Origin: Thermoleophilia bacterium | GTDB taxonomy: Bacteria > Actinomycetota > Thermoleophilia > Miltoncostaeales > Miltoncostaeaceae | Assembly: GCA_045403035.1 (NCBI GenBank) | Contig: JAXIPH010000141.1 | Coordinates: 1-26,152 of the forward strand | Length of the DNA stretch: 26,152 bases | Reading direction: 5' to 3' | The notes under the pieces: generated by a model | Databases searched by the model: none | Told to the model about the DNA's origin: nothing | Seen by the model: the letters and a program-made list of their open reading frames with translations, nothing else | Made by a program: the position numbers and the translations under genes | In this document: positions 6,695 through 23,316 of the stretch, piece by piece | How positions within the stretch are numbered: position 1 is the stretch's first letter | Layout: the number at the start of each line of letters is the position of its first letter

Positions 6695-8953
6695 TCAGGA
6701 GCCCGCACACGAGCCCTCCTCGGCCAGGACGCGGACGAGCTCGACGTGGCGGCCTGGGCGCGCCCGCAGGTCGAATCCGGACGAGCCCGGCGCCGGGGCG
6801 CCCTCACCCAGCAGGCGCAGGGCCACGTCGCGGCTGCCCCGCACCGTCCCCGCGTCCACGCACAGGGTCGCGAGGCCCGACGGGACGCGCGCGAGCCGGC
6901 CCGAGCGATCGACCCGCTCTAGCGCCACGCCGGTCTGCCGGATGGTCACGTCCACGCGCGCCCGGGTCGCGTCCGGCGCGACCAGCCTGACCACCAGGCG
7001 GCCGTCGATCCAGGCGCGGCCGGTGGGGTCGCGGTCGGCCCGGTCCGCCACCACCCCGGCCACGATGACGGCGTCGAGGGGGCGGGTCCGCTCCTGGATC
7101 GCGAAGGGCCCGTAGCGGGCCAGAGTCCGGCGGCCGTTCCCGACGGCGCCGAAGCGGGAGAGCACCCACCGGTACGACGGGGTGAACTCCGCCGCCGGCT
7201 TGGTGGTGGGCCCGAAGGCCAGCCCGAAGTGGTAGTCGTCGCCGCGGACGTAGGAGATCCGCCGCCCGCTCATGGCGACGGCGGCGTAGAGCGCGGGGAA
7301 CTCGTGCACGGCGTAGTACGAGCCGTTCGCGCCCTCGAGCAGGACGTCGCCCCGAAGCGTGCCGAGGCGGGCGGCGGCGTCGAGGGCGTCGGTGGGCAGC
7401 GCATAGCCGTCGGCCACCACGCGGGCGGTGAGCGAGGCCGACGCGGCGCCCCCCGCGCCGATGAGGCACAGCACCGCGAGGGGCGCGGCGAACCGGGCCG
7501 GGCCCCGCGTCCAGGCGGCGAGCGCCACGACGATCGCCAGCAGGAGCAGGAGGATCAGGGGTCCGAGGACCACCGCCGAGCGCTGGGTGCAGTAGCTGCA
7601 GCCGGAATCGATCCCCGCGACGAGAGCGCCCGTGCCCACGACGACCGCCACGGCCGCGACCGGTACGCCGAGGCGGCTCGCCCGGAGCAGGTGCATGAGC
7701 GAGACCGCGAGGACGGCGATCGCGGCGGCGGAGAGGAGGATCAGACCCAGGCTCACGCCGGAGCTCTCGCGGAAGTAGGGGAACGGCCGGAACTGCATCA
7801 GCCAGGGGACCGCTGCCGAGAAGCCCAGGTCGTACTGGGGGAAGATCGGCGCCAGGTTGTCCAGGAAGCCGCCGGTGCTCACGCTGCGCCAGTAGTCGAG
7901 GTTCCGGGAGAGCGCGACGGGCGAGAGGACCAGGCTCCCGGCGACGGCGAGGACCACCGGCGCCACCGTCGATCGCGTCGTCCGAAGGACGGTGCGGCGG
8001 GTCGGGCCGGACCGGGCCGCGACGACGAGCGCCACGGCGATGCTTCCGGCGACGAAGAACGGGTAGGTGAGCGGGTAGACCGTCTGGATCCCGGCCAGGA
8101 CGATCAGCAGGACGAGCGCCGGCCGGGCGCGCATCGGGGAGCGGATCCCGCTGAGGGCGAGGAGCGCGACCGGGACGAGGGCGAGCCCCGCCAGCGCGGC
8201 CTCGCTGCCCTCGATGAACAGGTGCAGCGTGAGCGGGCCCCCGTAGAGCACACACGCCGCGGCCGGGACGTAGACCGGCGCGCTCGGGAGCTCCGCGCGG
8301 ACGAGCGCGGCCATCCCCACTCCCCCGGTGAGGATGAGCGCTCCGAGCAGGGCGCTCTGCAGCGCGAGGACGTTCCATCCGAGCAGGGAGGCGGTCGCGG
8401 CGGCCAGGGCCTCGAAACCCCCCTGCTGGAAGCCACCGGCCCACCCGCTGCCGTAGTGGAGCATCACGTTCCAGTCGGGCCCCCACGGCTTCGGGTCCGA
8501 GAGCGCGTGCTGCTGCAGCGACGCCATGATGGCCGGGTACCCGCCCGTGGCGTCGTTGACGAGGTAGCCCATCGGCCCCCGGGAGCCGAGCAGCGCCAGG
8601 GGCACGGCCAGGGAGGCGATCACGACCAGGGCGGCGCCGAGCAGCAATGCGGACCGCCGGTGGTTGCGCCGCTCGCCCAGGCGCGCGAGGAGGCCGTGCC
8701 GCCGCGATGCCCAGGCGGCGGCGGCGAGCGCGGCGAGGACGAGCAGGGGCAGCAGGACCGCCCAGGCGGCGACGCGCATGGGCAGGATGTACGCCGCCGT
8801 GAAGAGGATCACGGAGCCGACCGCGAGCCCCAGCGCCGGCGCCGCGGCGACGCGCGTGAACAGCGGTCTCTCACGGAAGGCCCAGAGGCTCACCGGCAGC
8901 CCCAGGACCCCCATGAGCAGGACGATGGCGGCGGCCTGGAGGGCGAAGATCAC
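6695..8953 (-). CDS. Multi-pass membrane protein, GT-C-like (752 aa), distant paralog of 3787-6036
   Basis: Many TM segments, first-loop motif VNDATGGY, and FEALAAATASLLG and VYP motifs collinear with the + strand paralog. Soluble C-terminal tail. Start may originally have been 8991 (see findings). Confidence 0.7.
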   Translation of the reverse strand: MIFALQAAAIVLLMGVLGLPVSLWAFRERPLFTRVAAAPALGLAVGSVILFTAAYILPMRVAAWAVLLPLLVLAALAAAAWASRRHGLLARLGERRNHRRSALLLGAALVVIASLAVPLALLGSRGPMGYLVNDATGGYPAIMASLQQHALSDPKPWGPDWNVMLHYGSGWAGGFQQGGFEALAAATASLLGWNVLALQSALLGALILTGGVGMAALVRAELPSAPVYVPAAACVLYGGPLTLHLFIEGSEAALAGLALVPVALLALSGIRSPMRARPALVLLIVLAGIQTVYPLTYPFFVAGSIAVALVVAARSGPTRRTVLRTTRSTVAPVVLAVAGSLVLSPVALSRNLDYWRSVSTGGFLDNLAPIFPQYDLGFSAAVPWLMQFRPFPYFRESSGVSLGLILLSAAAIAVLAVSLMHLLRASRLGVPVAAVAVVVGTGALVAGIDSGCSYCTQRSAVVLGPLILLLLLAIVVALAAWTRGPARFAAPLAVLCLIGAGGAASASLTARVVADGYALPTDALDAAARLGTLRGDVLLEGANGSYYAVHEFPALYAAVAMSGRRISYVRGDDYHFGLAFGPTTKPAAEFTPSYRWVLSRFGAVGNGRRTLARYGPFAIQERTRPLDAVIVAGVVADRADRDPTGRAWIDGRLVVRLVAPDATRARVDVTIRQTGVALERVDRSGRLARVPSGLATLCVDAGTVRGSRDVALRLLGEGAPAPGSSGFDLRARPGRHVELVRVLAEEGSCAGS

Positions 8954-8991
8954 CGTGCCGCCCCCGGGTCCGGTCGCCGCGGGGTGCTCAC
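8950..8991 (-). other. 13-codon mini-ORF (MSTPRRPDPGAAR) overlapping the upstream stop and the downstream start
   Basis: GTG 8991 overlaps TGA 8988-8990, and its own TGA 8950-8952 overlaps GTG 8953. Whether it is translated is unknown. Confidence 0.3.
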
Positions 8992-9707
8992 ACCGCCCGC
9001 CCGGCGGCCTGCCGCCCGAGGAACCGGTCGGTCAGGGCGAGCGCCTCCGGCGTGCCGATGTCGTAGAACCGCCGGCGTGCCGGATACCCCGCCATCAGCC
9101 CGCGCGCGGCCAGGTCGCGCTGGACATCGGAGAGGTCGGGGGAGTCGGTGCCATCGAGGGCCTGGGGGGTCATCGCCAGCAGGCCGTAGTCGATCCAGCG
9201 GGCGGCGGCCGGCGGCCGGTGCTTGTCGTAGGCGACCACCATGCCCCGCGCGTACACCAGGTTGCTCGGCTCCCAGCGGTCGTCGTTGCGCAGGACCGTC
9301 ATCAACGCCGGCGTCCCGGCCCGCCGGCGTGCCGCGACGACGCCTCCGTAGTCCACGCGCAGATAGGTGTCCCCGTACATCACGAGGAACTCATCTCCCA
9401 GCAGTGGGAGGGCGGCCCGCACGGCACCCGCGGTGCCCGCGAGCCCGGGCGGGTCGTAGGCGTAGGTGATCGAGACGCCGAGACGGGCACCGTCGCCCAG
9501 GGCGGCCTCGATGCGATCCCCCAGGTGGCCGACGCACAGCACCACCGCGTCCGCTCCGTTGCTCCTCAGCAGCTCGAGCTGGTGCTCCAGGAAGGGCCGG
9601 CCGGCCACCGAGACGAGTGGCTTCGGCACGTCCTGGGCGAGGTCGCCGAGACGGGTCCCCTTCCCACCCGCGAGGATGCAGACCGGGGGGAGCCCCGCCC
9701 CGCTCAC
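8988..9707 (-). CDS. hddC: Sugar-1-phosphate nucleotidyltransferase (HddC/LmbO-like, probably guanylyltransferase)
   Basis: ILAGGKGTRLG...PKPLV, LGTAGA-like LAGTAGA, YGDTY, FYDIGTPE. Single domain of 239 aa located in a GmhA/HddA/GmhB cluster. Confidence 0.85.
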   Translation of the reverse strand: MSGAGLPPVCILAGGKGTRLGDLAQDVPKPLVSVAGRPFLEHQLELLRSNGADAVVLCVGHLGDRIEAALGDGARLGVSITYAYDPPGLAGTAGAVRAALPLLGDEFLVMYGDTYLRVDYGGVVAARRRAGTPALMTVLRNDDRWEPSNLVYARGMVVAYDKHRPPAAARWIDYGLLAMTPQALDGTDSPDLSDVQRDLAARGLMAGYPARRRFYDIGTPEALALTDRFLGRQAAGRAV

Positions 9708-10717
9708 CGCGTGGGGGGATCGGCGACGCCGTCGGGGAGCGTGGTGATCTCGCGCTCGATCCCTACCGGGCGCTCGAAGCCCTCCATCTGGTCGACGATG
9801 AAGATGGGACGGCGCTTCACCTCGTCGTAGATGCGGCCCACGTACTCGCCCATCACCCCCAAGCAGAGCAGCTGCACGCCGCTGAAGAACGAGATGATGA
9901 TCACCAGGGTGGGGTTGCCGAAGGGGATCTCGACGCCGGCCACCCGCAGGACGATGTAGGTCAGCCCCAGCAGCATGGCGACGCCCGCGAGCACGAACCC
10001 GCCCACCGAGATCAGGTGGAGGGGATAGCGGGAGAAGCCCACGATGCCGTTGACGCCGATGCGCATCGACCCGAAGAAGCGGTTGTACTTGCTGGTCCCG
10101 GCCGCTCGGGGATCGCGGTCGTAGAGCACGCTCGTCTGGGGGAACCCGACCAGCGCCACCAGGCCGCGGAGGAAACCGTGGGTCTCGTTGAGACGCAGCA
10201 CCTCGTCCACGACGCGACGGCTCATCAGGCGGAAGTCCCCGGTGTTCTGGGGGATGTCGACCTCCGCGACCCTGCGGATGAGCCGGTACCCGAGGGCGGA
10301 GACGATCCGCTTGGTGAGCGTCTCGCCCTCGCGGGTCCGCCGCTGGGCGTAGACCACGTCGAACCCGTCGCGCCAGCGCAGGACCATCTCGCCGATCAGC
10401 TCGGGTGGGTCCTGGAGGTCGCAGTCGATCACCACCACGGCGTCCCCAGACGACATCCGGAGCCCCGCCATGGTGGCGGCCGGCTGACCGAATCGCCGCG
10501 ACAGGCGCACCATCTTCACGCGCGGGTCGGCCGAGCGGAGCTCGCGGATGCGGTCCTCGGTCGCGTCCGTGCAGGGATCGAGGCTGAAGATGAGCTCGAA
10601 GTCCAGCCCGGCGTCGGTGAGGATCGGCAGCAGGCGGGCGTACAGCGGCCCGATGTTGCGCTCCTCATTGAGGCACGGCACGACCACCGACAGCAGCTTC
10701 CGGCGTGCGGAGGTCAG
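9704..10717 (-). CDS. gtrB: GtrB/DPM-synthase-like GT2 (polyprenyl-phosphate glycosyltransferase) with two C-terminal TM helices
   Basis: LSVVVPCLNEE, SRRFGQPAA, IDCDLQDPPE, GDFRLMSRR and two C-terminal TMs. Start is uncertain: CTG 10717 (SD AGGGGT, CTGA overlap) or GTG 10741. Confidence 0.85.
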   Translation of the reverse strand: MTSARRKLLSVVVPCLNEERNIGPLYARLLPILTDAGLDFELIFSLDPCTDATEDRIRELRSADPRVKMVRLSRRFGQPAATMAGLRMSSGDAVVVIDCDLQDPPELIGEMVLRWRDGFDVVYAQRRTREGETLTKRIVSALGYRLIRRVAEVDIPQNTGDFRLMSRRVVDEVLRLNETHGFLRGLVALVGFPQTSVLYDRDPRAAGTSKYNRFFGSMRIGVNGIVGFSRYPLHLISVGGFVLAGVAMLLGLTYIVLRVAGVEIPFGNPTLVIIISFFSGVQLLCLGVMGEYVGRIYDEVKRRPIFIVDQMEGFERPVGIEREITTLPDGVADPPTR

Positions 10718-11424
10718 CGGCGGACCCCTGTCATCATCCACGCCCGTGCCGGGGTCAGCGCCGACGGCCAGCGCACTCCGAACTGCAGGATCCAGGGGCC
10801 GATCGGCAGGCGGCGGCCCCGCACCTCGCCGAACCGCTCGGCCATGATCGCGCCGATGTCGCGGGCCGGGAGCTGCATGGTGGCCGGATGGGTCATCAGC
10901 GGGGTGCGCGCCAGCAGGGACAGGGGGGCGAAGAGCACCTTCTCCGCGGCGTGGAACCACCGCGGAACACACGACTCGGCCACGATCAGCCGCCCGCCGG
11001 GCTTCAGCACCCGGTGCGCCTCGGAGAGGGTCTGGCGGAGGTTCGGGACCAGGTCGCCGGCGCGCTCGCCCACCAGGTGGTGGATGACCAGCGCGAGCAG
11101 CACCGCGTCGTAGGCGCCGTCCGGCTCGTCGAGGGCCAGCGCGTCGCCGCGGCGGAAGGTGACGTTGGGCGGCGCCTCCGGGGCGGCCTCGTCCAGGAAC
11201 AGATCCACGGCCACGATCCGCTCGGCCAGTGAGGTGTCGTAGTCGAAGACCCCGCCGTTGCCGATGTCGAGGAGCGTCCCCACGCCCGCCACCTCGGCAT
11301 TGATCGCCTCCCGGATGACGCGGTAGGTCTCGAGCTCCGCGACGCCCTCCGCGTACTCCTTGTTGTTCGAGAAGAAGCGGCGGTTGGCCTCCGCGGCACT
11401 CTCGGACTGGCGCACCCCGCTCAC
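10714..11424 (-). CDS. Class I SAM-dependent methyltransferase (236 aa)
   Basis: LLDIGNGG motif I, VAVDLF, GDALAL, YDAVLL, HRVLKPGGRL. Confidence 0.85.
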   Translation of the reverse strand: MSGVRQSESAAEANRRFFSNNKEYAEGVAELETYRVIREAINAEVAGVGTLLDIGNGGVFDYDTSLAERIVAVDLFLDEAAPEAPPNVTFRRGDALALDEPDGAYDAVLLALVIHHLVGERAGDLVPNLRQTLSEAHRVLKPGGRLIVAESCVPRWFHAAEKVLFAPLSLLARTPLMTHPATMQLPARDIGAIMAERFGEVRGRRLPIGPWILQFGVRWPSALTPARAWMMTGVRR

Positions 11425-11927
11425 CTGGCCACCGCCTCGGCGTGGGGGCGGAAGACCCAGGCGCGCAGGACGAGGAAGCTCACGATGCCGAGCACGACGG
11501 TGGCCACGAAGAAGACCGCCAGGTCGGGCACCCCGAGGGCGCCCGGGAGCACCGCCAGGGCGGCGGCGGTGAGGCCGTACGAGGTGAGAGCCACGCAGAG
11601 GTAGCGCGCGCCCTGCGCGCTCAGCCGCAGGGCGTATCGCCCGTCCGACGCGAACACCCAGTTGCGGTTGAGGGTGAAGTGCAACCCCAGCGCGAGCGCG
11701 TACCCGAGCGCCAGCGCGCCCTGGATCGGCATGCCGGCCAGGCTCAGCACGGTGACGGCGCTGAGATGGACGACGGCGACCGTCAGGCCGGACACGGCGA
11801 AGCGGGCGGCCGAAGCCGCCGCGGGGATCCGCGCCAGGGTCGACACGAGTCGGCTGGTGGAGGTGGCCGTCACCGTGCGGGATCGTACTCCCCGCGCCGC
11901 GGAGGGCAGCGCACCCGGGCGGGTCAC
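11421..11927 (-). CDS. gtrA: GtrA-family flippase-like small membrane protein
   Basis: Four hydrophobic helices, RFAVSG, HFTLNRNWVF and a terminal LRAWVFR. GTG 11927 (GTGA overlap); alternative start 11873. Confidence 0.85.
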   Translation of the reverse strand: MTRPGALPSAARGVRSRTVTATSTSRLVSTLARIPAAASAARFAVSGLTVAVVHLSAVTVLSLAGMPIQGALALGYALALGLHFTLNRNWVFASDGRYALRLSAQGARYLCVALTSYGLTAAALAVLPGALGVPDLAVFFVATVVLGIVSFLVLRAWVFRPHAEAVAR

Positions 11928-12838
11928 CGCCTTCGCTCCATCACGAGCGCCTCGCGGATCCCGAAGCGCGGGCGCACACCGCGGCGCAGGAGCGCCTGCT
12001 CCAGGCGGAAGGCCCCCCGCACCAGCCGCGACGTCTCGGAGCGGGCGATATCGCGCTCGACACGCCGCCGCGCCGCCTCGTCGTCCAGGCCGCCGGCGCG
12101 GCGGCGGTTGCGCTGCTTGACGGTCCAGAAGGCGGGGTAGACGACGCTTCCCAGGTGGGCTCCGGCGCGGGGCTCGAGGCCGACCGAGCGCGCCTTGCCG
12201 GCAAGCTCGCCGCGGTCGTAGCGGCGTTCGTGCCGCAGATGTGCGTCGTAGTAGTCGTAGAGGCGTGGGTTGGCCGGCACGACGACCACGGCCCGGCCCC
12301 CCGGGCGGAGCACCCGCGCGAACTCTGCCAGCGCGTCCCGGTCGCCGGTCAGGTGCTCCAGGAGGTTGAGGGCCACCAGGCCGTCCACGCATCCGTCCCC
12401 CAGCGGGAGGTCGGTGGCGCTCGCGTGGAGGATGACGGCGCCTGGGGCCGCAACCTGAGCGCGCGCGAGGCCGGCCGACTCCGCGTCGACGCCGGCCAGC
12501 TCGGCGTCCGGCCACTCCGCCCGGAGGTCGGCGAGCAGGTGGCCCCCGCTGCAGCCCACGTCGAGCAGCGTCGGCCGTGGGCCGAGCGCGGCGCCCCTCA
12601 TCGCCGACACCGCCATCAGGCGGGTGAGGACGTCGATCGGATGCTCCTGTGCCGCGCGCTCGTGCAGGGCCTCCAGGTCGGCGGACCACCCGACCGCACC
12701 GTCGTCGCCGAGATAGGAGATGTACGGCGCGGGGGGGGTCGCCGCATCGGCCCGCCAGCCCTCGGAGGTGAGCTCGGGGAGCGCCGCCAGGCCCGGGGGC
12801 GGCCTCAGGCGGGCGACGATCGCGGGCACGGCCGTCAC
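11924..12838 (-). CDS. Class I SAM-dependent methyltransferase (304 aa) of the type found beside GtrA/GtrB
   Basis: GTG 12838 (GTGA overlap). LLDVGCSGG, NLLEHL, RVLRPGG, YDYYDAHLRHERRY. Confidence 0.85.
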   Translation of the reverse strand: MTAVPAIVARLRPPPGLAALPELTSEGWRADAATPPAPYISYLGDDGAVGWSADLEALHERAAQEHPIDVLTRLMAVSAMRGAALGPRPTLLDVGCSGGHLLADLRAEWPDAELAGVDAESAGLARAQVAAPGAVILHASATDLPLGDGCVDGLVALNLLEHLTGDRDALAEFARVLRPGGRAVVVVPANPRLYDYYDAHLRHERRYDRGELAGKARSVGLEPRAGAHLGSVVYPAFWTVKQRNRRRAGGLDDEAARRRVERDIARSETSRLVRGAFRLEQALLRRGVRPRFGIREALVMERRR

Positions 12839-13851
12839 GCGCTCGCCGGCGCGGGGGAGGACATGGTCCATCCGGAGCGCCGGTACGCCTCCTGGACCAC
12901 CGACAGGCCGTAGCGCGCGGACTCGAGATCTCCGAGCAGCGCGGCCGGGCCTCGCGCGAGAACGGCCTCCCGGAAGTGCTCCCACTCCGCCCGCCAGGAC
13001 GGGTCGGCGGCGGGGAAGGCGACCTCCTCGAGGTCGGGCGGGCCCATCTCCGGCCTCATGCGCCAGACCCTCAGGATCTGGGGGCCGTACGATCCGGCCA
13101 GGCCGGTGACCTGCAACTTCGTCCGCCTGGTGTAGATCTCCATCGCGAACTCGTTCCTCCACTCGGACCAGCTTACGTGGAAGGACGACCAGGGCGCGGC
13201 CGTGCCCGGTCCGGCGAGCGTGAGCACGGCGTTGTCGTCGACGGGCATGTCCCAGTAGTTGGTGCGCACCAGCGCGGAGTGCAGCGGCAGGGGGCCGAGG
13301 AGCCAATGGCTCAGGTCGAGGAGGTGCATCCCCTGGTCGAGCAGCTCCCCGCCGCCGGAGACCTCCGGTCGCGAGCGCCACTCGCGGTCGTAGCCCGGGC
13401 GCCCGCCGTGGCCGTAGCGGCCGCGCATGTACATGAGCTCCCCGTGCTCACCCGAGCGGACCTCCCCGATCGCGCGCGCGATGCCGGGGTGGAAGCGGTG
13501 GTTGAACCCCACCTTCACGAGCCGGCCGGTGCTCTCCGCCGCCGAGATGATCCCGTCCACCTCCTGCGGGGTGCGCCCCGCGGGCTTCTCCACCAGGACG
13601 TGGCAGCCGGCGGCGAGCGCGGCGATCGCCGTGGGGGCGAGATGGTCATGGGTCGTCGCCACGATCACGACGTCGGGCCGCTCGGCGAGGGCCCCGGCCA
13701 GGTCGGCGGCGCGTGCGCCGTGGCGGCCCGCCAGCTCCTGCGCGCGGCCGGCGTCCGGATCGACGCACGCCACCAGGCGGTCGTCCCCCAGCACCGCGGC
13801 GCGCTTGTCGCCCATCCGCCCGCACCCGACGATGGCGACGCGGAGGCTCAC
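12835..13851 (-). CDS. Gfo/Idh/MocA family NAD(P)-dependent oxidoreductase (LmbZ/CcbZ-like family)
   Basis: IVGCGRMG, HVLVEKP, VGFNHRF, GGGELLDQGMHLLD. Confidence 0.9.
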   Translation of the reverse strand: MSLRVAIVGCGRMGDKRAAVLGDDRLVACVDPDAGRAQELAGRHGARAADLAGALAERPDVVIVATTHDHLAPTAIAALAAGCHVLVEKPAGRTPQEVDGIISAAESTGRLVKVGFNHRFHPGIARAIGEVRSGEHGELMYMRGRYGHGGRPGYDREWRSRPEVSGGGELLDQGMHLLDLSHWLLGPLPLHSALVRTNYWDMPVDDNAVLTLAGPGTAAPWSSFHVSWSEWRNEFAMEIYTRRTKLQVTGLAGSYGPQILRVWRMRPEMGPPDLEEVAFPAADPSWRAEWEHFREAVLARGPAALLGDLESARYGLSVVQEAYRRSGWTMSSPAPASA

Positions 13852-14834
13852 GTGTACTCCTGCCCGGTGCAGCCCTGGTAGTCGAAGCCGAACCGGACCT
13901 CCTCGGCACCCTCCTCGGCCAGGGCGCGTCGCGTCCGGGGAGGGTCGGCGCTGTACAGCAGGACGAAACCGCCCCCGCCCGCGCCCACCAGCTTGCCGCC
14001 CAGGGCCCCGTTGTCGCGGGCGATCTCGTAGAGGCGGTCGGCGCGGTCGGTGCTCATCCCCTCCGACCGCCTGCGCTTGTTGAGCCAGTGCTCGTGCATC
14101 AGAGCCGCATACGCCTCGAGATCACCCTCCTCGAGGAGCCGCCGGCTCTCGTAGCCGATCTCCTTGGTGCGGTGGAGGTTCTCGATCATCGCGGGATCCA
14201 GCGCCCGCGTGCGCGTGTCCTGATCGGCCAGGAGCTGCGCGGCGCGGCGCGTCTCGCCGGTGAAGAACAGCAGGAACCCGTCCGCCATCCGCTCGAGGGT
14301 CGGTCCCGACAGCTGCAGCGGCTCGACCGTGACCGTGTCGTCCGGATGGAAGGTGTAGGCGCAGACCCCGCCGTGCGCCGCGGCGTACTGGTCCTGCTTG
14401 CCCGAGGGCTCTCCGAGACGGTCGATCTCGATGTGGCAGGCGGCCTCGGCGATCGCCTCCGGCGTCGACGACATGCGCCCCGCCAGCGCGAGCGCCTTGA
14501 GGAGGCAGACCGTGTAGGCGCCCGACGACCCCAGGCCGGTGCCCGCCGGGATGTCCGCGACGGACGCGATCTCCAGGGGGCTGCCCTTCCAGTGGAGGCA
14601 CAGCGCCTCGCGCAGGATCGGGTGGCGGATGTCGGCCGGGTCGTCCACCTCCTCGAACTCCGAGTACTTCAGCCGGTAGCGGCGCTGGAAGACCGTGTGG
14701 GTGAGCATGTAGACGTACTTGTCGATGGCGCCCGCCACGAGGAAGCCCCCGTGGGCGCGGTAGTACGAGGGGATGTCGGTGCCGCCGCCGCCGAGGCTGA
14801 TGCGCATCGGCGCCCGCGTGAAGATCATGCTCAC
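13848..14834 (-). CDS. hddA: GHMP sugar-phosphate kinase (HddA/LmbP-like)
   Basis: PMRISLGGGGTD, DIPAGTGLGSSG, GKQDQY, GGKLVGAGGGGF. Start is GTG 14834 or ATG 14828. Confidence 0.9.
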   Translation of the reverse strand: MSMIFTRAPMRISLGGGGTDIPSYYRAHGGFLVAGAIDKYVYMLTHTVFQRRYRLKYSEFEEVDDPADIRHPILREALCLHWKGSPLEIASVADIPAGTGLGSSGAYTVCLLKALALAGRMSSTPEAIAEAACHIEIDRLGEPSGKQDQYAAAHGGVCAYTFHPDDTVTVEPLQLSGPTLERMADGFLLFFTGETRRAAQLLADQDTRTRALDPAMIENLHRTKEIGYESRRLLEEGDLEAYAALMHEHWLNKRRRSEGMSTDRADRLYEIARDNGALGGKLVGAGGGGFVLLYSADPPRTRRALAEEGAEEVRFGFDYQGCTGQEYT

Positions 14835-15799
14835 GACGAGCTCCGGGCCGAGAAGACCCACTCGTTGTCGTCGAACCAGGCGAGGGTGCGGCCGACCGCC
14901 TCGCGGATGGTGAGCGCGGGGGTCCAGCCCAGCGAGCGCAGGCGCGAGCAGTCGAGGTGGATGAGGGGGCTGTCGCCCACCCAGCCGCGCTCGCCCCCGG
15001 TGTGCTCGACCTCGGGGCTCACGCCCAAGTGCTCGCAGATGGCGGCGACCGAGGCGTCGACCGTCGTCACCTCGTCGGTTCCGAGGTTGTAGGTCGCCAC
15101 GCCGGGCTCCGCGTGGCGGCGGGCGAGCATCGTGACCGCCTCGATGCAGTCGCCGACGTAGAGGTACGACTTCCGCTGGCGCCCGTCCCCCAGGACGCGC
15201 AGCCGGGTGGGGTCCTCGCGCAGCGCGCGGACGAAGTCGAAGAGGTGGCCGTGCGTGTACCGCTCCCCCATGATCGAGACGAACCGCAGCACGACGCCGG
15301 CGAAGCCGTACCCCTCGCAGTAGGCCTGCACCAGCCCCTCGCCGGCGAGCTTGGAGGCGCCGTAGAGCGAGGTCTGGCGGGGGAACGGGCAGGTCTCGGG
15401 GGTGGGGAAGACCTCGGGCTCGCCGTAGACCGAGCCGGTGGACGAGAAGACGATCCGCCGGACTCCCTCGGCCCGCATCGCCTCGAGGACGGTGAAGGTC
15501 GCGATGGTGTTCTGGCGCAGATCGCGATCCGGGTGCTCGAGCCCGTGGCGGACGTCGGCGTTGGCCGCGAGGTGGAAGACCACGTCGCACCCGCGCACGG
15601 CCCCGCGGAGCCGGCCCGCGTCGAGCACGTCCCCCTCCACCACGCGGGCCGAGGCGGCGGCGCGGACGCCGGTCAGGAAGCGCTCCTGCCCCGACGAGAA
15701 GTCGTCGTAGACGACGGTCTCGACGCCGTCCGACACCAGCCGGTCCGCCAGGTTGCTTCCGATGAAGCCCGCCCCGCCCGTGATCAGCGCGCGCCTCAC
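14831..15799 (-). CDS. NAD-dependent nucleotide-sugar epimerase/dehydratase (extended SDR, LmbM-like family)
   Basis: ITGGAGFIGSNL, FSSTGSVYG, YGASK. Confidence 0.9.
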   Translation of the reverse strand: MRRALITGGAGFIGSNLADRLVSDGVETVVYDDFSSGQERFLTGVRAAASARVVEGDVLDAGRLRGAVRGCDVVFHLAANADVRHGLEHPDRDLRQNTIATFTVLEAMRAEGVRRIVFSSTGSVYGEPEVFPTPETCPFPRQTSLYGASKLAGEGLVQAYCEGYGFAGVVLRFVSIMGERYTHGHLFDFVRALREDPTRLRVLGDGRQRKSYLYVGDCIEAVTMLARRHAEPGVATYNLGTDEVTTVDASVAAICEHLGVSPEVEHTGGERGWVGDSPLIHLDCSRLRSLGWTPALTIREAVGRTLAWFDDNEWVFSARSSS

Positions 15800-15823
15800 G
15801 CGCCCGCCGCCAACCTCACGCGC
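15794..15823. repeat. 10-bp direct repeat CCTCACGCGC (15794-15803, 15814-15823) duplicating the stop/start junction
   Basis: Read directly. The reverse complement GCGCGTGAGG contains the GTGA overlap in both copies. Confidence 0.8.
15796..15819 (-). other. 7-codon mini-ORF (MRLAAGA) bridging the transaldolase stop and the epimerase start
   Basis: GTG AGG TTG GCG GCG GGC GCG TGA, with a GTGA overlap at both ends. Whether it is translated is unknown. Confidence 0.3.
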
Positions 15824-16556
15824 GACCCGGGACGGGGTCGAGGGTGAATCCCGATGCCGCGGCGTCGTCGTGGAACATGCGCACCGTCTCGAGGCTGAAG
15901 GTGTCCAGGCTCTTGCCGAGGCCGCTCAGCTTGGCCAGCAGGTCGTGGGTGACCGTGATGATGTGGCAGCCCGCCTCGCTCGCCTGGACGATGTTCAGCA
16001 CCTCGCGCGGGCTGGCCCAGATCAGCTCGGCGCTCGGTGCAGCCCGCATCGCGTCCAAGGCCTCGCGGACCATCGGGACCGGATCACGGCCCGTGTCGGC
16101 GATGCGCCCGGCGAAGAGCGAGATGCACGAGGGAGCGCCGCCAGCGACGGCGGCGACGGTCTCCTCCACCTGGCGCACCGTCATGAGGGCGGTGACGTTC
16201 AGCTGCACGCCGTCCGCCGACAGGTCGCGCACCACCTCGGCGAGGGATGCGCCCGCGGTCGTGGTGACCGGGACCTTGACGTAGACGTTCGCCCCCCACG
16301 ACGCGATCTCGCGCGCCTGGATCCGGATCGCGGCCGGGTCGTCGGCGAACACCTCGAACGAGATCGGTCGGTCGGTGATGTGGCGCAGCACCTCGCGCGC
16401 AAAGCCGGCGTAGTCGGTCAGCCCGGCCTTTCTCATCAGGGTCGGGTTGGTGGTGAACCCCTTGATCCACGGGTGCTTCGCCAACCGCAGGATGCCGTCG
16501 AGGTCGGCCCCGTCGGCGAAGATCTTCACCCGGAGGCCCCTCAGGACGTCGTTCAT
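15816..16556 (-). CDS. tal: Short-family transaldolase (246 aa; TalC/FSA fold, LmbR-like role proposed)
   Basis: ATG 16556 (ATGA overlap). FADGAD, GFTTNPTLM, SFEVF, Schiff-base Lys in NVYVKVP, SLFAGRI. Confidence 0.9.
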   Translation of the reverse strand: MNDVLRGLRVKIFADGADLDGILRLAKHPWIKGFTTNPTLMRKAGLTDYAGFAREVLRHITDRPISFEVFADDPAAIRIQAREIASWGANVYVKVPVTTTAGASLAEVVRDLSADGVQLNVTALMTVRQVEETVAAVAGGAPSCISLFAGRIADTGRDPVPMVREALDAMRAAPSAELIWASPREVLNIVQASEAGCHIITVTHDLLAKLSGLGKSLDTFSLETVRMFHDDAAASGFTLDPVPGRA

Positions 16557-17173
16557 GCCGTCTCCTCCTCCACGAACGAGCTGACCGGGAGCAGCGCGGT
16601 GGCGGCCGCCACCATGCGGGCGGCGGCCGGCAGGTCGTCCACGCTCGCATCCGCCGTCACGTGCCCCCTCCGATGCCGGGTTCCGGGGTGCCGCACGAGG
16701 ATCGTCCGGCATCCCGCCGCGCGGCCCGCCGCCATGTCCGCATCCCCGTCGCCGATCATCCAGGATGCCGAGAGGTCGAGGGCGAGGTCCCGCGCCGCAT
16801 CGAGCAGCATTCCCGGCGCCGGCTTCCGGCAATCGCAGGCGCCCGAGAGGGCCGGCAGCGTGCCGTCGGGATGGTGCCGGCAGTAGCGCCAGTCGTCGGG
16901 CGCCACCCCGAGCGCCTCCAGGCGGCGGACGATCTCGTCGTGGACCGCGTCGAGGTCGGCCTCCGTGGCCGTGCCCTTGGCGGCGCTCGGCTGGTTGGAC
17001 ACCACGACGAGCGTCGCGCCGGCGCGGCGGAACTCCGCGAGCGCCTCCGCGCACCCGGGCGTGAGCCGCACGTCCTCGGGACGATGCGGCGACTCGGGCA
17101 GGCCGCTGACCGGGTGAGGCACCGGTTCGTTGATCACCCCATCGCGGTCGAGGAAGACCGCCCAGCCGCTCAC
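16553..17173 (-). CDS. gmhB: HAD-IIIA sugar-bisphosphate phosphatase (GmhB/LmbK-like)
   Basis: GTG 17173 (GTGA overlap). FLDRDGVINE, VVSNQP, YCRHHP, CDCRKPAPGML, MIGD. Confidence 0.92.
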   Translation of the reverse strand: MSGWAVFLDRDGVINEPVPHPVSGLPESPHRPEDVRLTPGCAEALAEFRRAGATLVVVSNQPSAAKGTATEADLDAVHDEIVRRLEALGVAPDDWRYCRHHPDGTLPALSGACDCRKPAPGMLLDAARDLALDLSASWMIGDGDADMAAGRAAGCRTILVRHPGTRHRRGHVTADASVDDLPAAARMVAAATALLPVSSFVEEETA

Positions 17174-17787
17174 GCCGACGCCGCCTGGGTGTCGATGCTC
17201 TCCCACGTGCCCGGCCGCTGGGCGAGCGCCGGGTGCGAGACGAGTAGGTGCCACACGACCGCCTGGAAGGCCTCCGTATGCGGCGTGAGGCGCTCCGGCG
17301 GCGCGCCCGTGACGACGACGCAGACGTCGGCGAGCTGCGCGGTGACCCCGTCCGGCCGTCCCACCACGCCGAGGACGCCGGCTCCCACCTCGCGGGCGAG
17401 CTCGACCGCGTTCACCAGGCTCATGCTGATGCCGTGCTCTCGGGATCCGCCGCCGACCGAGAGGATCAGGAGAGCGTCCTCGGCCCGGAGGCGCGACCCG
17501 CGCAGCCAGTTCGAGTAGGCGACGTCCCATCCCTCGTCGTTGACCCTGGCGGTGAGCTCGGAGACGTTGTCGCTCGGCGCGTAGCTCTCCAGATCGCAGA
17601 TCTTGCGGAAGTCATTGACCGCATGCGAGGCGTGCCCCGCACCCCCTCCGGCGCCCAGGATGAAGAGTCGTCCGCCGCCGTCGCGCACCCGGGCAAGCCG
17701 GTGTGCCATGGCCTCGATCGTGGACGTGTCCAGCGACCCCGCGATGTCGCGAACCTCCGCGAGGTACGTTTCGGAGAAGGTTGGTAT
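17170..17787 (-). CDS. gmhA: SIS-domain phospho-sugar isomerase (GmhA/LmbN-like)
   Basis: RLFILGAGGGAGHASHAVNDFRK, LTARVNDEG, C-terminal VVWHLL. The frame is open only to TAG 17797-17799. The SIS-like N-terminal helix (TFSETYLAEV) begins after ATA 17787, and the first ATG (17709) would truncate it. Confidence 0.85.
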   Translation of the reverse strand: MPTFSETYLAEVRDIAGSLDTSTIEAMAHRLARVRDGGGRLFILGAGGGAGHASHAVNDFRKICDLESYAPSDNVSELTARVNDEGWDVAYSNWLRGSRLRAEDALLILSVGGGSREHGISMSLVNAVELAREVGAGVLGVVGRPDGVTAQLADVCVVVTGAPPERLTPHTEAFQAVVWHLLVSHPALAQRPGTWESIDTQAASA

Positions 17788-17793
17788 CGCCCG

Positions 17794-17802
17794 ACGCTAC
17801 CA
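17794..17802 (-). promoter_or_regulatory. Extended -10 (TG-G-TAGCGT) 6 nt upstream of the gmhA-like ATA; leaderless-type promoter
   Basis: Matches TGnTAnnnT. Its spacer CGGGCG is nearly identical to the TACCCT-CGGGCC-ATG arrangement at 23456-23470. Confidence 0.6.
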
Positions 17803-17858
17803 GTTGAATGGGCGGCCCTCGCGCCGCCCCGGCGCGCGGAACATCCATCCTGGTCATC

Positions 17859-17864
17859 GGGAGG
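17859..17864 (+). promoter_or_regulatory. Shine-Dalgarno GGGAGG 5 nt before CTG 17870
   Basis: cGGGAGGcaacgCTGaacgag. Confidence 0.65.
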
Positions 17865-17869
17865 CAACG

Positions 17870-18697
17870 CTGAACGAGCTCGACGGGCGCCGCATCGTGG
17901 TGCTGGGCGGGACCGGTGGGATCGGTGCTGCGAGCGTGGCGGCTCTGCGGGCGCGCGGCGCCTCGGTGCTCACCACCGGGCGCGACCCCGAGCGCCTGCG
18001 CGCGCTGGGGGACGAGGGCGTCGCGACACTCCGGCTGACGCTGGGCGATGCCGGCGCGGCCGGCGAGTTGGCCGCGGCCGTCGATCGGGAGCTGGGAGGG
18101 ATCGACGCCCTGGTCGCGTCGTCCGGGGGCTACGGCCCCATCGGCCGGACCCGCTCGGTGGACCTCGCCGCCCTGCGCGCGTCCCTCGACGCGAACCTCC
18201 TCGGCATCCTCGAGTGCGTGCAAGCCCTGGCTCCGGCCCTCGACCGGGGGCGCGACCCCTCAATCGTCCTGCTCTCGGGTGGCGGCGCGACGGCGCCGCT
18301 TCCGAACTACGCCGCCTACTCCATCGCGAAGGTCGCGACCGTCCGCCTGGCGGAGACCCTCGCCCTCGAGGAGCCCGGCTGGCGGGTGAACGCCGTGGCC
18401 CCGGGATTCGTCGCGACCCGGATCCACGACGCGACCAGGGACGCCGGGCCCGAGGCGGCGGGCGGGATGTACGCGGACACCGAGCGCCAGACCGAGAGGG
18501 CGGTCCCGCCCGAGCGGGCCGCCGAGCTGATCGCGTTCCTCGTGGGGTCGGAGGCGGCGGGCATCACCGGACGGCTGATCAGCGCCATCTGGGATCCCTG
18601 GCGCGAGGAGGACGGCCGCAGGGTTCTGCGCGAGCACCCCAGCTTCGGGCGCCTGCGCCGCGTCGACGGCGACCGCGTCGTGGACACGACCGTCTGA
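17870..18697 (+). CDS. Classical SDR (ketoreductase) family oxidoreductase (275 aa)
   Basis: VLGGTGGIG, LLSGGGA, YSIAK (YxxxK), VNAVAPG. Start inferred at CTG 17870; the alternative TTG 17804 has no SD. Confidence 0.85.
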   Translation: MNELDGRRIVVLGGTGGIGAASVAALRARGASVLTTGRDPERLRALGDEGVATLRLTLGDAGAAGELAAAVDRELGGIDALVASSGGYGPIGRTRSVDLAALRASLDANLLGILECVQALAPALDRGRDPSIVLLSGGGATAPLPNYAAYSIAKVATVRLAETLALEEPGWRVNAVAPGFVATRIHDATRDAGPEAAGGMYADTERQTERAVPPERAAELIAFLVGSEAAGITGRLISAIWDPWREEDGRRVLREHPSFGRLRRVDGDRVVDTTV

Positions 18698-19938
18698 TGC
18701 GCGTGGTGGTCATGGGCGCGTGGCACCTCGGTGCCGTCGCGACCGCCGTCGTCGCGGGCTGGGATCGTGCGGTGGAGGTGTGGGACCGGGATCCGCGCGT
18801 CCGGGCCGAGCTGGCCGCGGGCCGACCCCTGGTTGACGAGCCCGGGCTCGCCGAGGGCCTCGCGTCCGCCGCAGACCGGATACGGGTCCAGCTGTCCGAG
18901 GCGCCCGAGCTGGGAGAGGCCGACGTGGTGCTCGTGGCCTACGACACCCCGGTCGATGAGCACGACCGGCCCGATCTCTCCCCCATCCGTGAGGCGGTGG
19001 GCTTCGCGGCGGGCGGCGCGCGCCCCGGCGCGCTGGTCCTGCTCCACAGCCAGCTCCCGCTCGGGACCGCCGCCGCGCTGCGGGCGGCGCTCGACGGGCG
19101 GGGGCGGACGGACCTGCTGCTCGCGGTGACCCCCGAGAACCTGCGCCTGGGACAGGCGATGGCCGACTTCGCCCGGCCGCGGGCGCTCGCGGTGGGTGCC
19201 GACGACCCGGCGGCGGCGGCGGCGGCGCGGGAGTTCTGGGCGCCGACCCGGGTCGACGTGGAGGTGGTGAGCCCCGCCACCGCGGAGCTGTCCAAGCACG
19301 TCATCAACGCGACCCTCGCCACCTGCACGGCCCTCGGCAACGAGCTCTCGGACGTGGCGGCCTCGAGCGGCGCCGACGCCACGGCCGCCGCCCGGCTGGC
19401 CAAGCGCGATCCCCGGCTCGCGTCGCTGCCGCTGCTGCCGGGCATGCCGTTCGGCGGCGGGACGCTGGCGCGCGACCTGGGCGTCCTGGCCGACCGCGGC
19501 GGCGAGGGTTCGCTGGCGGCGGCCGTGCGGAGGGCGAACGCCGGACGGCTGGACCGGCTCGCCGGGCGCATCGCCGAGGCCGGCGGCCCCGTGGCCGTGC
19601 TCGGTCTGACCTACAAGCCCGGCACCTCGACGCTGCGCCGCTCCATGGCGTTGGAGCTGGCGGCCCGGATCGCGGACCTCGGGATGGACGTGCGGGCGCC
19701 CGATCCCCACGCTCACGAGGACGACCCCGCGCTGTCGGGGCCCGGCGCGCCGGCGCTCCACGGCCGCGACGGGGCTCTGGACGGCGCGGCGACGGGCGTG
19801 GTGGCCACCGCCCATCCGGAGTTCCGCGGGATCGACCCCGCCGCAGTGCGGGCTTTTGGCGCCGGAACCGTGATCGACCTCGTCGGGGGCCTCGACCCCC
19901 GCCGCAACTGGTCCGGACTCGACGTGCAGGGCCCCTGA
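18697..19938 (+). CDS. UDP-glucose/GDP-mannose dehydrogenase-family protein lacking the catalytic Cys (LmbL-like family; 413 aa)
   Basis: ATG lies in a TGATG overlap. GAWHLG, DTPVD, PENLRLG, AELSKHVIN, VLGLTYKPGT. GGGTLARD replaces the canonical GGSC(L/F)PKD. Confidence 0.85.
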   Translation: MRVVVMGAWHLGAVATAVVAGWDRAVEVWDRDPRVRAELAAGRPLVDEPGLAEGLASAADRIRVQLSEAPELGEADVVLVAYDTPVDEHDRPDLSPIREAVGFAAGGARPGALVLLHSQLPLGTAAALRAALDGRGRTDLLLAVTPENLRLGQAMADFARPRALAVGADDPAAAAAAREFWAPTRVDVEVVSPATAELSKHVINATLATCTALGNELSDVAASSGADATAAARLAKRDPRLASLPLLPGMPFGGGTLARDLGVLADRGGEGSLAAAVRRANAGRLDRLAGRIAEAGGPVAVLGLTYKPGTSTLRRSMALELAARIADLGMDVRAPDPHAHEDDPALSGPGAPALHGRDGALDGAATGVVATAHPEFRGIDPAAVRAFGAGTVIDLVGGLDPRRNWSGLDVQGP

Positions 19939-21312: not shown

Positions 21313-21320
21313 GGGGAGCG

Positions 21321-21326
21321 AGTCTA
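21321..21326 (-). promoter_or_regulatory. Putative -10 TAGACT, 8 nt before ATG 21312 (no SD)
   Basis: TAnnnT in the 39-nt gap after gmd. Confidence 0.45.
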
Positions 21327-21351
21327 GTCGGGTCGGGTCTCCGGCCGCGCC

Positions 21352-23273
<1,922 letters not shown>

Positions 23274-23281
23274 GGGCGATG

Positions 23282-23287
23282 AGGCTA
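23282..23287 (-). promoter_or_regulatory. Putative -10 TAGCCT, 8 nt before the rmd GTG (no SD)
   Basis: TAnnnT directly upstream of the start. Confidence 0.45.
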
Positions 23288-23316
23288 CCGGACGGGGGGC
23301 GGGGCGCGACTCAAAC

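Follow-up and report, generated by a model that had tools for sequence, protein, structure and literature searches.

The sugar branch of lincosamide biosynthesis is encoded by LmbR/N/P/K/O followed by LmbM/L/Z/S in Streptomyces lincolnensis and by CcbR/N/P/K/O/M/L/Z/S in S. caelestis, and it includes a transaldolase within a sugar-nucleotide pathway. The GDP-D-glycero-alpha-D-manno-heptose pathway (GmhA, HddA/WcbL, GmhB, and HddC) supplies a seven-carbon counterpart, while the GtrA/GtrB/GtrC systems of O-antigen glucosylation in Shigella and Salmonella, ArnC/ArnEF/ArnT, and PgfS-type systems deliver sugars through a lipid carrier. The window analyzed here, a stretch of 26,152 nucleotides from an uncultured soil actinobacterium of the Gram-positive type (class Thermoleophilia), encodes in one locus the same eight families as the lincosamide branch, LmbR/N/P/K/O/M/L/Z, a family-by-family parallel that the original prediction had drawn and that proved real. 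It also holds the four families of the heptose pathway in the same logical order, as well as a similar set of GT2, GtrA, and large GT-C-like proteins in one operon. Unlike the Gtr, Arn, and PgfS-type systems, which also differ in host type, this operon has a dedicated rare-sugar pathway as the presumed source of the cargo, two interleaved methyltransferases, and a GT-C-like protein from a rare family. The most likely role of the operon is to make an uncommon sugar of seven or eight carbons, load it onto a membrane lipid, and attach it to the cell surface.

Operon organization and genomic surroundings

Gene positions and the minus-strand orientation were obtained from third-position GC frame analysis, Pfam, and NCBIfam, which recovered every enzyme family previously claimed for the locus. 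Coordinates include the stop codon.

17170..17796, minus strand: SIS-family sugar-phosphate isomerase, first gene of the operon (Pfam SIS_2, weak)
16553..17173, minus strand: GmhB-like HAD-IIIA phosphatase (NCBIfam)
15816..16556, minus strand: short transaldolase (TIGR02134)
14831..15799, minus strand: NAD-dependent SDR epimerase/dehydratase, LmbM/CcbM-like (Pfam Epimerase, 174 bits)
13848..14834, minus strand: HddA/WcbL-like GHMP anomeric sugar kinase (Pfam GHMP N and C domains)
12835..13851, minus strand: Gfo/Idh/MocA oxidoreductase, LmbZ/CcbZ-like (Pfam)
11924..12838, minus strand: first class I SAM methyltransferase (Pfam Methyltransf_11/25)
11421..11927, minus strand: GtrA-family small membrane protein (Pfam GtrA_DPMS_TM, 50 bits)
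10714..11424, minus strand: second class I SAM methyltransferase (Pfam Methyltransf_11)
9704..10741, minus strand: GtrB-type GT2, polyprenyl-phosphate glycosyltransferase (match to solved GtrB, PgfS model)
8988..9707, minus strand: sugar-1-phosphate nucleotidyltransferase (Pfam NTP_transferase)
6695..8953, minus strand: 752-aa polytopic membrane protein, probable GT-C (TM segments, hhalign, AF2 fold matches)
17897..18697, plus strand: classical SDR oxidoreductase (Pfam adh_short)
18697..19938, plus strand: UGD-family NDP-sugar dehydrogenase, LmbL/CcbL-like (Pfam UDPG_MGDP_dh N, central, and C domains)

The minus-strand genes are translationally coupled from 17796 to 6695, and 4-nt start/stop overlaps at 8 of the 11 junctions between the SIS gene and the 752-aa gene indicate a single operon. 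The SDR/UGD pair (17897 to 19938) is divergent from it on the plus strand, its two genes being coupled by an ATGA overlap. The GT-C-like gene predicted for the locus is indeed the next gene of the operon, but at 6695 to 8953 it lies just beyond the span (8988 to 19938) that had been claimed. At the conserved N terminus of the isomerase a canonical start codon is missing, and ATA occupies positions 17787 to 17785 where a homolog has ATG.

As the original prediction had stated, the window contains neither a PLP aminotransferase nor lincosamide condensation genes; adenylation, carrier-protein, CcbD-, LmbE-, LmbF-, and LmbV-type genes are absent from it, and, unlike the lincosamide branch, it holds no mycothiol-related genes. 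The sugar might still belong to a secreted secondary metabolite, lincosamide-like or other, instead of an envelope glycan, as the eight enzyme families in common with the lmb/ccb sugar branch and three DegT aminotransferases elsewhere in the genome would allow. However, the true ccb cluster interleaves all of its condensation-type genes with the sugar genes, and the three DegT genes are all on contigs other than that of the window, where one adjoins a nucleotidyltransferase of its own. The surroundings, moreover, are made up of glycosyltransferases, GtrA/GtrB, GT-C-like proteins, and a GDP-6-deoxyhexose branch, with GT1 genes at 301 to 3787 of the window. We consider a secreted metabolite very improbable; unlike that of the lincosamide antibiotics, the destination would be a lipid carrier and the envelope.

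The transaldolase cassette and its core enzymes

A synteny survey found the same genes together in same-genus and other-family relatives, in metagenome contigs, and in 80 named genomes, a recurrence which indicates that the grouping is not due to chance. At the 49 loci with full flanks, the transaldolase is accompanied by the isomerase (43/49), the phosphatase (40/49), the kinase (39/49), and the nucleotidyltransferase (32/49), an SDR homolog is present at 19, and the tailoring set joins this cassette in only about 40%. The cassette transaldolase was detected in 4 of 40 relatives and in 5 of 400 sampled Actinomycetota, and cassettes of this type are present in at least 578 species spread over many phyla. 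Our literature search found no published description of the cassette.

The window transaldolase scores 321 bits with TIGR02134 (NCBIfam), above the cutoff of 282, and its Lys94, Glu68, and Phe148 are invariant among 12 homologs. Another short transaldolase is encoded on contig C344 of the same genome; the window gene is thus a second, accessory copy dedicated to the pathway. The presumed kinship with the lincosamide transaldolase did not hold, as the cassette transaldolases form a clade (support, 99/98) with CcbR outside it, and the best-scoring model of CcbR is FSA/TalC, unlike the TIGR02134-type window protein. The annotation of TIGR02134 describes an ordinary transaldolase, and this counts against an eight-carbon product. 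The natural product of ordinary transaldolase is sedoheptulose-7-phosphate.

The core enzymes were compared with a real celesticetin (ccb) cluster, recognized via CcbD, and with three heptose-type loci (kinase-isomerase-phosphatase, one of them with a nucleotidyltransferase), all of which lack the transaldolase that is integral to the cassette. None of the isomerase, kinase, phosphatase, and nucleotidyltransferase reached the curated NCBIfam cutoffs for heptose enzymes. The isomerase scored 37 to 44 bits with the gmhA models (cutoffs, 209 to 320) and only 13 to 26 bits with heptose-type GmhA, an outlier to both comparison sets; its cassette homologs are 50 to 67% identical across phyla. The kinase scored 140 bits with the HddA model (cutoff, 600), 129 to 139 bits with heptose-type kinases versus 110 with CcbP, and 126 to 154 bits with the solved WcbL/HddA heptose-7-phosphate kinases, its nearest solved relatives. 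For the phosphatase, the NCBIfam histidinol-phosphatase domain gave 129 bits and the GmhB model 125 (below the cutoff of 178), and it is somewhat closer to heptose-type GmhB (78 to 125 bits; 30 to 44% identity) than to CcbK (77 bits; 32%). The nucleotidyltransferase, whose orthologs in relatives (57 to 63% identity) likewise close the locus, scored much the same with CcbO (106 bits) as with heptose-type HddC (100 bits); the HddC model gave 66 bits against a cutoff of 300. Its best named NCBIfam match is MurU (109 bits), and GDP, which had been assumed as the carrier nucleotide, counts here as a candidate only. Identity of the core enzymes to Ccb is only 30 to 37%, and all five appear about equally distant by sequence from the Ccb and heptose-type enzymes, with the kinase and phosphatase leaning toward heptose.

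These comparisons bear on the chain length of the sugar. With the same architecture and lipid-carrier delivery, the product could be a modified heptose (C7), in which case the four enzymes would be divergent GmhA, HddA, GmhB, and HddC, the transaldolase would be a local supply of sedoheptulose-7-phosphate, and the tailoring enzymes would carry out oxidation, epimerization, and reduction at the ring or C6. The leaning of the kinase and phosphatase, the solved heptose-7-phosphate kinases, and a transaldolase that passes an ordinary-family cutoff and stands apart from the CcbR lineage all fit such a product. The missed cutoffs and an isomerase almost unrecognizable as GmhA argue against it, as does a transaldolase that heptose-type loci do not need and of which the genome already has another short copy. 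We consider a heptose somewhat less likely than an octose.

Tailoring enzymes and the proposed sugar

The epimerase and the Gfo enzyme form reciprocal best-hit pairs with their lincosamide counterparts at 39 to 44% identity (CcbM, 252 versus 123 and 247 versus 124 bits, 43 to 44%; CcbZ, 191 versus 86 and 174 versus 95 bits, 39 to 41%). The UGD-family protein, like CcbL, has Thr in the column of the catalytic Cys (GGGTLARD and SGSTLQRD, respectively), while the solved 2y0c and the ordinary paralog in the genome have GGSCFPKD. Among the proteins of the Streptomyces genome it matches CcbL best (162 versus 86 bits), but CcbL in turn finds its best match in the Thermoleophilia genome in the ordinary UGD paralog and not in the window gene. 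The Cys-less trait is common to a much wider family, and same-genus relatives lack the UGD-like gene. Lincosamide-specific kinship is limited to the three enzymes resembling CcbM, CcbZ, and CcbL. The original suggestion of an envelope-directed counterpart, or an ancestor, of the antibiotic pathway can apply at most to these three, given that the core enzymes show no grouping with their lincosamide equivalents.

Unlike the heptose pathway, the window adds Gfo, Cys-less UGD-family, and SDR tailoring enzymes. To our knowledge, 6,8-dehydration requires a three-carbon side chain, which among these sugars the octose alone has. This reaction is said to be performed by LmbL and CcbZ, reportedly as described by Wang et al. 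in 2020. The CcbZ/CcbL-like pair would accordingly suit a side-chain dehydration that would be impossible for a heptose. Unlike the lincosamide route, in which an aminotransferase acts, the window has the UGD-coupled SDR, a possible ketoreductase; in all three other contigs examined, an SDR likewise stands directly ahead of a UGD-subfamily gene with a transaldolase nearby. The first methyltransferase (11924..12838), which may O-methylate the sugar, has equivalently placed homologs (50 to 77% identity) in Solirubrobacterales loci, whereas the second (10714..11424) recurs in its place at just one of the other loci surveyed.

We tentatively favor, at slightly below an even chance, a transaldolase-started sugar-nucleotide pathway that yields an octose (C8) and is coupled to lipid-carrier glycosylation; the choice of C8 over C7, taken alone, is about evenly balanced. 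The dedicated transaldolase would transfer a three-carbon unit from fructose-6-phosphate or sedoheptulose-7-phosphate to an aldose phosphate, most likely ribose-5-phosphate, giving octulose-8-phosphate. The divergent SIS isomerase would convert the ketose to the aldose, the GHMP kinase would place a phosphate on C1, the HAD phosphatase would remove the terminal phosphate of the bisphosphate, and the nucleotidyltransferase would turn the sugar-1-phosphate into an NDP-sugar, whatever its base. The CcbM-like epimerase, CcbZ-like Gfo enzyme, and Cys-less CcbL-like dehydrogenase may then oxidize and deoxygenate the side chain, and the SDR may reduce the keto group where lincosamide synthesis adds an amine, which would leave a neutral deoxy higher sugar for the methyltransferases to O-methylate.

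Lipid-carrier glycosylation genes

The GT2 protein matches the solved Synechocystis GtrB (5ekp) over its full length at 270 bits (ArnC, 133 bits; PgfS model, 235 bits) and has two or three C-terminal TM segments, making its placement in the GtrB family solid on sequence grounds. GtrA, with several hydrophobic segments, adjoins the GT2 gene in relatives too and is a candidate flippase for the lipid-linked sugar. The 752-aa protein has about 13 TM segments and a C-terminal domain of about 240 aa. It has no Pfam match (a 36%-identical homolog matches DUF6541), but hhalign relates it at 95% probability to the MEM749 family, of which the G002 ortholog has a weak PMT_2 match. Its AF2 model is weak (pLDDT, 54; pTM, 0.51), with AftA, PglB, and ArnT as the best full-length fold matches, and a word-index search found only five homologs. 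It is probably a GT-C enzyme for which the lipid-linked sugar, outside the membrane, would be the donor. The predicted Gtr wiring is thereby upheld, with a true GtrB homolog, GtrA, and a probable GT-C enzyme in the operon of the pathway.

In the octose pathway that we favor, the GtrB homolog would load the sugar onto polyprenyl phosphate, GtrA would flip it across the membrane, and the 752-aa protein would transfer it to an envelope acceptor. Counted against this explanation are the isomerase start codon, the weak GT-C model, the core that is not lincosamide-like, and the partial linkage of the tailoring set, and likewise the UGD-like gene missing from same-genus relatives, the nonreciprocal CcbL match, and the breadth of the Cys-less family. 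In agreement with the original prediction, the literature searched describes no linear octose carried by a Gtr system.

The cassette and the GtrA/GtrB/GT-C genes could instead share an operon and act on separate substrates, with GtrB loading glucose, mannose, or GlcNAc and the rare NDP-sugar being used by cytoplasmic glycosyltransferases such as those of the GT1 genes. In other genomes, the cassette is accompanied by Wzx/Wzy and GT1/GT4 enzymes but not by Gtr genes, only 13 of the 49 cassette loci have a GT2 gene, and characterized GtrB-family enzymes are known to take common UDP or GDP sugars as donors. Such a division seems unlikely to us, however, as the GT2 gene is flanked by a pathway methyltransferase and the nucleotidyltransferase, overlapping the latter by 4 nt, and relatives retain the GtrA-GT2-nucleotidyltransferase block intact.

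Organization of the operon

Our analysis supports the reading that the operon produces a nucleotide-activated higher-carbon sugar, which undergoes tailoring and methylation and is transferred to a polyprenyl-phosphate carrier. Gene calls made by third-position GC analysis together with Pfam and NCBIfam searches recovered the gene families and the two divergent operons named in the original prediction. The window (contig C309; ∼74% G+C) comes from a metagenome-assembled genome (MAG) of 2.56 Mb that is 79% complete, and the names carried by its close relatives include Baekduia and Solirubrobacterales. In order of transcription, the minus-strand operon encodes a SIS isomerase (SIS), a GmhB-like HAD phosphatase (HAD), a short transaldolase (TAL), an SDR epimerase (EPI), an HddA-like GHMP kinase (KIN), a Gfo/Idh/MocA enzyme (GFO), a methyltransferase (MT), GtrA, a second methyltransferase, a glycosyltransferase (GT2), a nucleotidyltransferase (NTP), and a 752-amino-acid (aa) membrane protein, with 4-nt start/stop overlaps at 8 of the 11 junctions. 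A classical SDR gene and a UGD-family gene (UGD) form a mutually overlapping pair that diverges from the operon start. Two of the operon genes, both assigned to the proposed delivery module, lie as follows.

6695-8953, minus strand: 752-aa membrane protein, last gene of the operon
9704-10741, minus strand: GT2, a GtrB-type glycosyltransferase

The first of these is the GT-C-like gene of the original prediction; it is indeed present in the same operon, although just beyond the interval predicted. The five core families (TAL, SIS, KIN, HAD, and NTP) occur together in the window's single locus according to Pfam and NCBIfam. In agreement with the original prediction, the same searches of the window returned neither a PLP aminotransferase (LmbS/CcbS) nor condensation genes of the LmbC/D/E/F/V types, and the three DegT genes of the host genome are all located on other contigs. 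A scan for promoters and terminators gave nothing above chance. The start of the isomerase gene is anomalous: there is no ATG, GTG, or TTG between an in-frame TAG (17797-17799) and the ATG at 17709, the 29 codons upstream of this ATG are conserved in homologs, and an ATA (17787-17785) occupies the aligned position of the start Met in the homolog from locus L021 of another genome (IPTFSETYL versus MPSESFSKTYL). This could reflect a non-canonical start, a base error in the MAG, or a damaged gene.

Distribution of the transaldolase cassette

The host genome encodes two transaldolase-family genes, the operon copy and a short one on contig C344; the latter is the kind carried by most relatives and is 28 to 36% identical to the operon copy. 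The operon transaldolase scores 321 bits on the NCBIfam model TIGR02134, above its curated cutoff of 282, and the Schiff-base Lys (K94) and the transaldolase-type E68 and F148 are invariant in its alignment. Its distribution is patchy (4 of 40 relatives and 5 of 400 evenly sampled Actinomycetota), while at 56 to 71% identity it is found in at least 578 species of the Actinomycetota, Acidobacteriota, Chloroflexota, Proteobacteria, Planctomycetota, Cyanobacteria, and other phyla.

Genes near the operon-type transaldolase, counted in 49 loci in which 8 kb or more of sequence flanks the transaldolase on each side
SIS isomerase: 43/49
HAD phosphatase: 40/49
GHMP kinase: 39/49
Nucleotidyltransferase: 32/49
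Epimerase: 20/49
SDR: 19/49
Gfo enzyme: 18/49
GT2: 13/49
GtrA: 12/49
UGD-family gene: 10/49

Within the genus the gene order is kept (SDR / SIS-HAD-TAL-...-EPI-KIN-GFO-MT ... GtrA-GT2-NTP), and a genome of another family carries a compact SIS-HAD-TAL-KIN-NTP block amid glycosyltransferases and O-methyltransferases. The operon transaldolase is a dedicated member of the pathway. The canonical GDP-heptose pathway draws sedoheptulose-7-phosphate from central metabolism and its locus lacks a transaldolase, whereas in the window the transaldolase is placed inside the operon. The three heptose-type reference loci, which were picked for high HddA-model scores, have the composition KIN-SIS-HAD, one of them also with NTP, and none of the three contains a transaldolase.

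Database labels on the cassette genes name heptose enzymes or a plain transaldolase, and no description of a transaldolase-centered sugar-nucleotide cassette was found in the literature searched. This gene group, built around its own transaldolase, extends over those 578 or more species and many phyla. In two few-contig assemblies (L018 from G001 and L017 from G014), many genes of the syntenic locus (transaldolase, kinase, Gfo, GDP-mannose 4,6-dehydratase, and reductase) are in two to three frame-shifted pieces, which look like long-read indel errors and not pseudogenes.

Relationship to lincosamide and heptose-type enzymes

A single cluster from a 400-genome Streptomyces sample, with the genus marked via the chaplin domain, served as the celesticetin (ccb) reference. 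This Streptomyces locus (L117; G761:C1:100000-119999) was first sighted through its short transaldolase and encodes a PmbA/TldD protein, the transaldolase, a DegT aminotransferase, a nucleotidyltransferase, a kinase, an adenylation enzyme, a PIG-L amidase, a second aminotransferase, a Gfo enzyme, a stand-alone isomerase, an epimerase, a UGD-family protein, and a phosphatase. Its 359-aa protein matches 7yn2 and 9dkr over the full length at 675 bits and is CcbD, so the locus is the celesticetin cluster itself or one very close to it. Roles of the Ccb genes were assigned after PMC4351081 and PMC12945683. The cluster holds the same five core families as the window, plus the aminotransferase and all the condensation genes. 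Lmb/Ccb sugar enzymes were searched for in the PDB and none was found; two LmbN candidates with a carrier-protein fusion, among 150 cluster representatives, turned out to be ordinary metagenome proteins.

Sequence comparison between the window and Ccb or heptose-type enzymes (bit scores for each pair; identity for window versus Ccb)
TAL: window versus CcbR, 33-34% identity, 97-101 bits
KIN: window versus Ccb, 33% identity, 76 bits (110 in the three-way comparison); window versus heptose-type, 129-139; Ccb versus heptose-type, 85-112
HAD: window versus Ccb, 32% identity, 77 bits; window versus heptose-type, 78-125; Ccb versus heptose-type, 60-79
NTP: window versus Ccb, 37% identity, 106 bits; window versus heptose-type, 100; Ccb versus heptose-type, 81
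SIS: window versus Ccb, 30% identity, 65 bits (40-65 in the three-way comparison); window versus heptose-type, 13-26; Ccb versus heptose-type, 64-86
EPI: window versus CcbM, 43% identity, 244 bits
GFO: window versus CcbZ, 39% identity, 173 bits
UGD: window versus CcbL, 38% identity, 149 bits

Orthology of the transaldolase with LmbR/CcbR fails on model scores, tree position, and identity. CcbR is best matched by TIGR00875 (FSA/TalC) at 143 bits and reaches only 106 bits on TIGR02134; in the maximum likelihood tree it forms a long branch by itself, excluded from the cassette transaldolase clade (99/98 support); and the window enzyme is about as identical to CcbR as to housekeeping short transaldolases. 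Nor do the three-way bit scores of the other four core enzymes (SIS, KIN, HAD, and NTP) place them as a group nearer to Ccb than to the heptose type. Because of these scores and the position of CcbR outside the clade, the cassette core is not a set of orthologs of the lincosamide core. CcbN is itself nearer to GmhA than the widespread cassette isomerase is (89 versus 37 bits on the gmhA model).

None of these four window enzymes reaches the curated heptose equivalog cutoffs of NCBIfam: the isomerase scores 37 to 44 bits on GmhA models (cutoffs, 209 to 320), the kinase 140 on the HddA model (600), the phosphatase 125 and 63 on GmhB models (178 and 250, respectively), and the nucleotidyltransferase, whose best named NCBIfam match is MurU, a UTP enzyme, 66 on the HddC model (300). 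What the present analysis adds is the measured relationship of the cassette to genuine Ccb and heptose-type enzymes: as judged from sequence, the three cores lie at about the same distance from one another, and C7 and C8 cannot be distinguished by homology.

The tailoring enzymes behave differently from the core, and the LmbM/Z/L types assigned to them in the original prediction are largely retained. The epimerase and CcbM are reciprocal best matches (252 versus 123 bits one way and 247 versus 124 the other), as are the Gfo enzyme and CcbZ (191 versus 86 and 174 versus 95 bits). For the UGD-family protein the best Streptomyces match is CcbL (162 versus 86 bits), but this holds one way only, with CcbL slightly preferring the ordinary UGD in a search of the host genome. 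UDP-glucose and GDP-mannose 6-dehydrogenases are four-electron enzymes with a catalytic Cys in the motif GGxCxPKD. The window protein (GGGTLARD) and CcbL (SGSTLQRD) both have Thr at this column, where the solved 2y0c and the host's ordinary paralog read GGSCFPKD. These comparisons indicate that the epimerase, Gfo, and UGD-family enzymes are specifically related to CcbM, CcbZ, and CcbL.

The window UGD belongs to a small subfamily (47 to 70% identity), whose gene lies directly 3′ of an SDR gene and near the transaldolase in all three of the other contigs examined. The loss of the Cys is not a cassette-specific trait, since the wider family at ∼40% identity has Thr too. Relatives annotated as "UDP-glucose 6-dehydrogenase" or "nucleotide sugar dehydrogenase" (protein matches P0141 to P0240) read (A/S)GGTLARD without the catalytic Cys, and members occur in Gemmataceae, Acidiferrales, and many metagenomes; this large family probably consists of two-electron dehydrogenases that are mislabeled in databases. 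L021 (GCA_039746475.1) carries a DegT aminotransferase gene and a malic-enzyme-like gene downstream of the SDR/UGD pair.

Chain length, delivery, and adjoining genes

We put the chance that the operon sugar is an octose (C8) at close to even. An octose is favored because the transaldolase is dedicated and accessory, because the isomerase combines strong conservation across phyla with little likeness to GmhA, and because the CcbM/Z/L-like trio is present; its lincosamide versions reportedly (Wang et al. in 2020) carry out a 6,8-dehydration, for which a three-carbon side chain is required. The alternative, a heptose (C7), agrees with the lean of the kinase and phosphatase to the heptose type and with the annotation of the transaldolase family as ordinary transaldolase, and we regard it as a serious but less probable reading. 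The coupling of the SDR to a CcbL-like gene and the lack of an aminotransferase suggest that reduction takes the place of transamination, which would yield a neutral deoxy sugar.

On the delivery side, GT2 matches the solved Synechocystis GtrB (5ekp) over the full length at 270 bits (ArnC, 133 bits) and has C-terminal transmembrane segments at residues 243 to 297; GtrA scores 50 bits on PF04138 (cutoff, 26), and its gene adjoins that of GT2 in relatives too. The 752-aa protein is predicted to cross the membrane ∼13 times and ends in a domain of ∼240 aa. Pfam gave no match, nor did the PDB when searched by sequence and by profile, and its gene has no ortholog in close relatives; five homologs were found, plus two more in Solirubrobacterales loci. 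Its language-model neighbors are labeled DUF6541/PMT-like, a 36%-identical homolog matches DUF6541, and profile comparison (hhalign) relates it at 95% probability to the family of a 749-aa protein from an upstream operon, whose ortholog in the genome G002 has a weak PMT_2 match. An AF2 model from five sequences was unusable (pLDDT, 44), and a marginal one from seven (pLDDT, 54; pTM, 0.51) found AftA (E value, 1e-4), PglB, and ArnT as best full-length folds, with TM-scores of 0.3 to 0.45. Taken together, these indirect lines of evidence point to a probable GT-C glycosyltransferase. Wiring differs by genome: locus L022 (a Logan contig) links the cassette to Wzy, Wzx, GT1/GT4, and an acetyltransferase and contains no Gtr genes. 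Downstream use of the cassette sugar, and possibly also its amination, differs between hosts.

Returning to the octose, we tentatively propose, with more doubt than confidence in the whole, that the product would be a neutral O-methylated 8-deoxy-octose, the hydroxyl analogue of lincosamine and the first known case of a linear eight-carbon sugar in a bacterial envelope, carried on polyprenyl phosphate via the Gtr/GT-C machinery; surface-glycan cassettes would have been the pool from which the lincosamide M/Z/L enzymes were recruited, with the transaldolases acquired independently. In the literature searched, we found no surface glycan described as containing a linear octose derived by way of a transaldolase. 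If the octose is true, linear eight-carbon sugars would no longer be a peculiarity of a single family of antibiotics but a common component of bacterial surfaces, and lincosamide tailoring chemistry would gain a relative in primary metabolism.

The genes adjoining the operon in the window are the following.

301-6036, plus strand: upstream operon running towards the main operon (GT1, FkbM-like, GT1, 749-aa polytopic protein)
3787-6036, plus strand: the 749-aa polytopic protein
19999-23393: GDP-6-deoxyhexose branch (GDP-mannose 4,6-dehydratase, reductase/epimerase, 437-aa methyltransferase)
23977-25392: malic-enzyme-like gene

The 749-aa protein is 56% identical to its G002 counterpart, which is followed by a second, frameshifted copy; its relation to the 752-aa protein is the remote one detected by hhalign and not that of close paralogs (BLAST E value, 0.13). 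In the GDP-6-deoxyhexose branch, the dehydratase scores 418 bits against a cutoff of 415, and it is syntenic together with the reductase in relatives of the same genus and the same family; therefore, two or more rare-sugar lines are encoded in this region. The malic-enzyme-like gene was ruled out as a cassette companion (0 of 80 surveyed cassette loci), and any link is therefore local; close relatives show synteny of this gene with the locus, and in L021 it directly follows the UGD-family gene.
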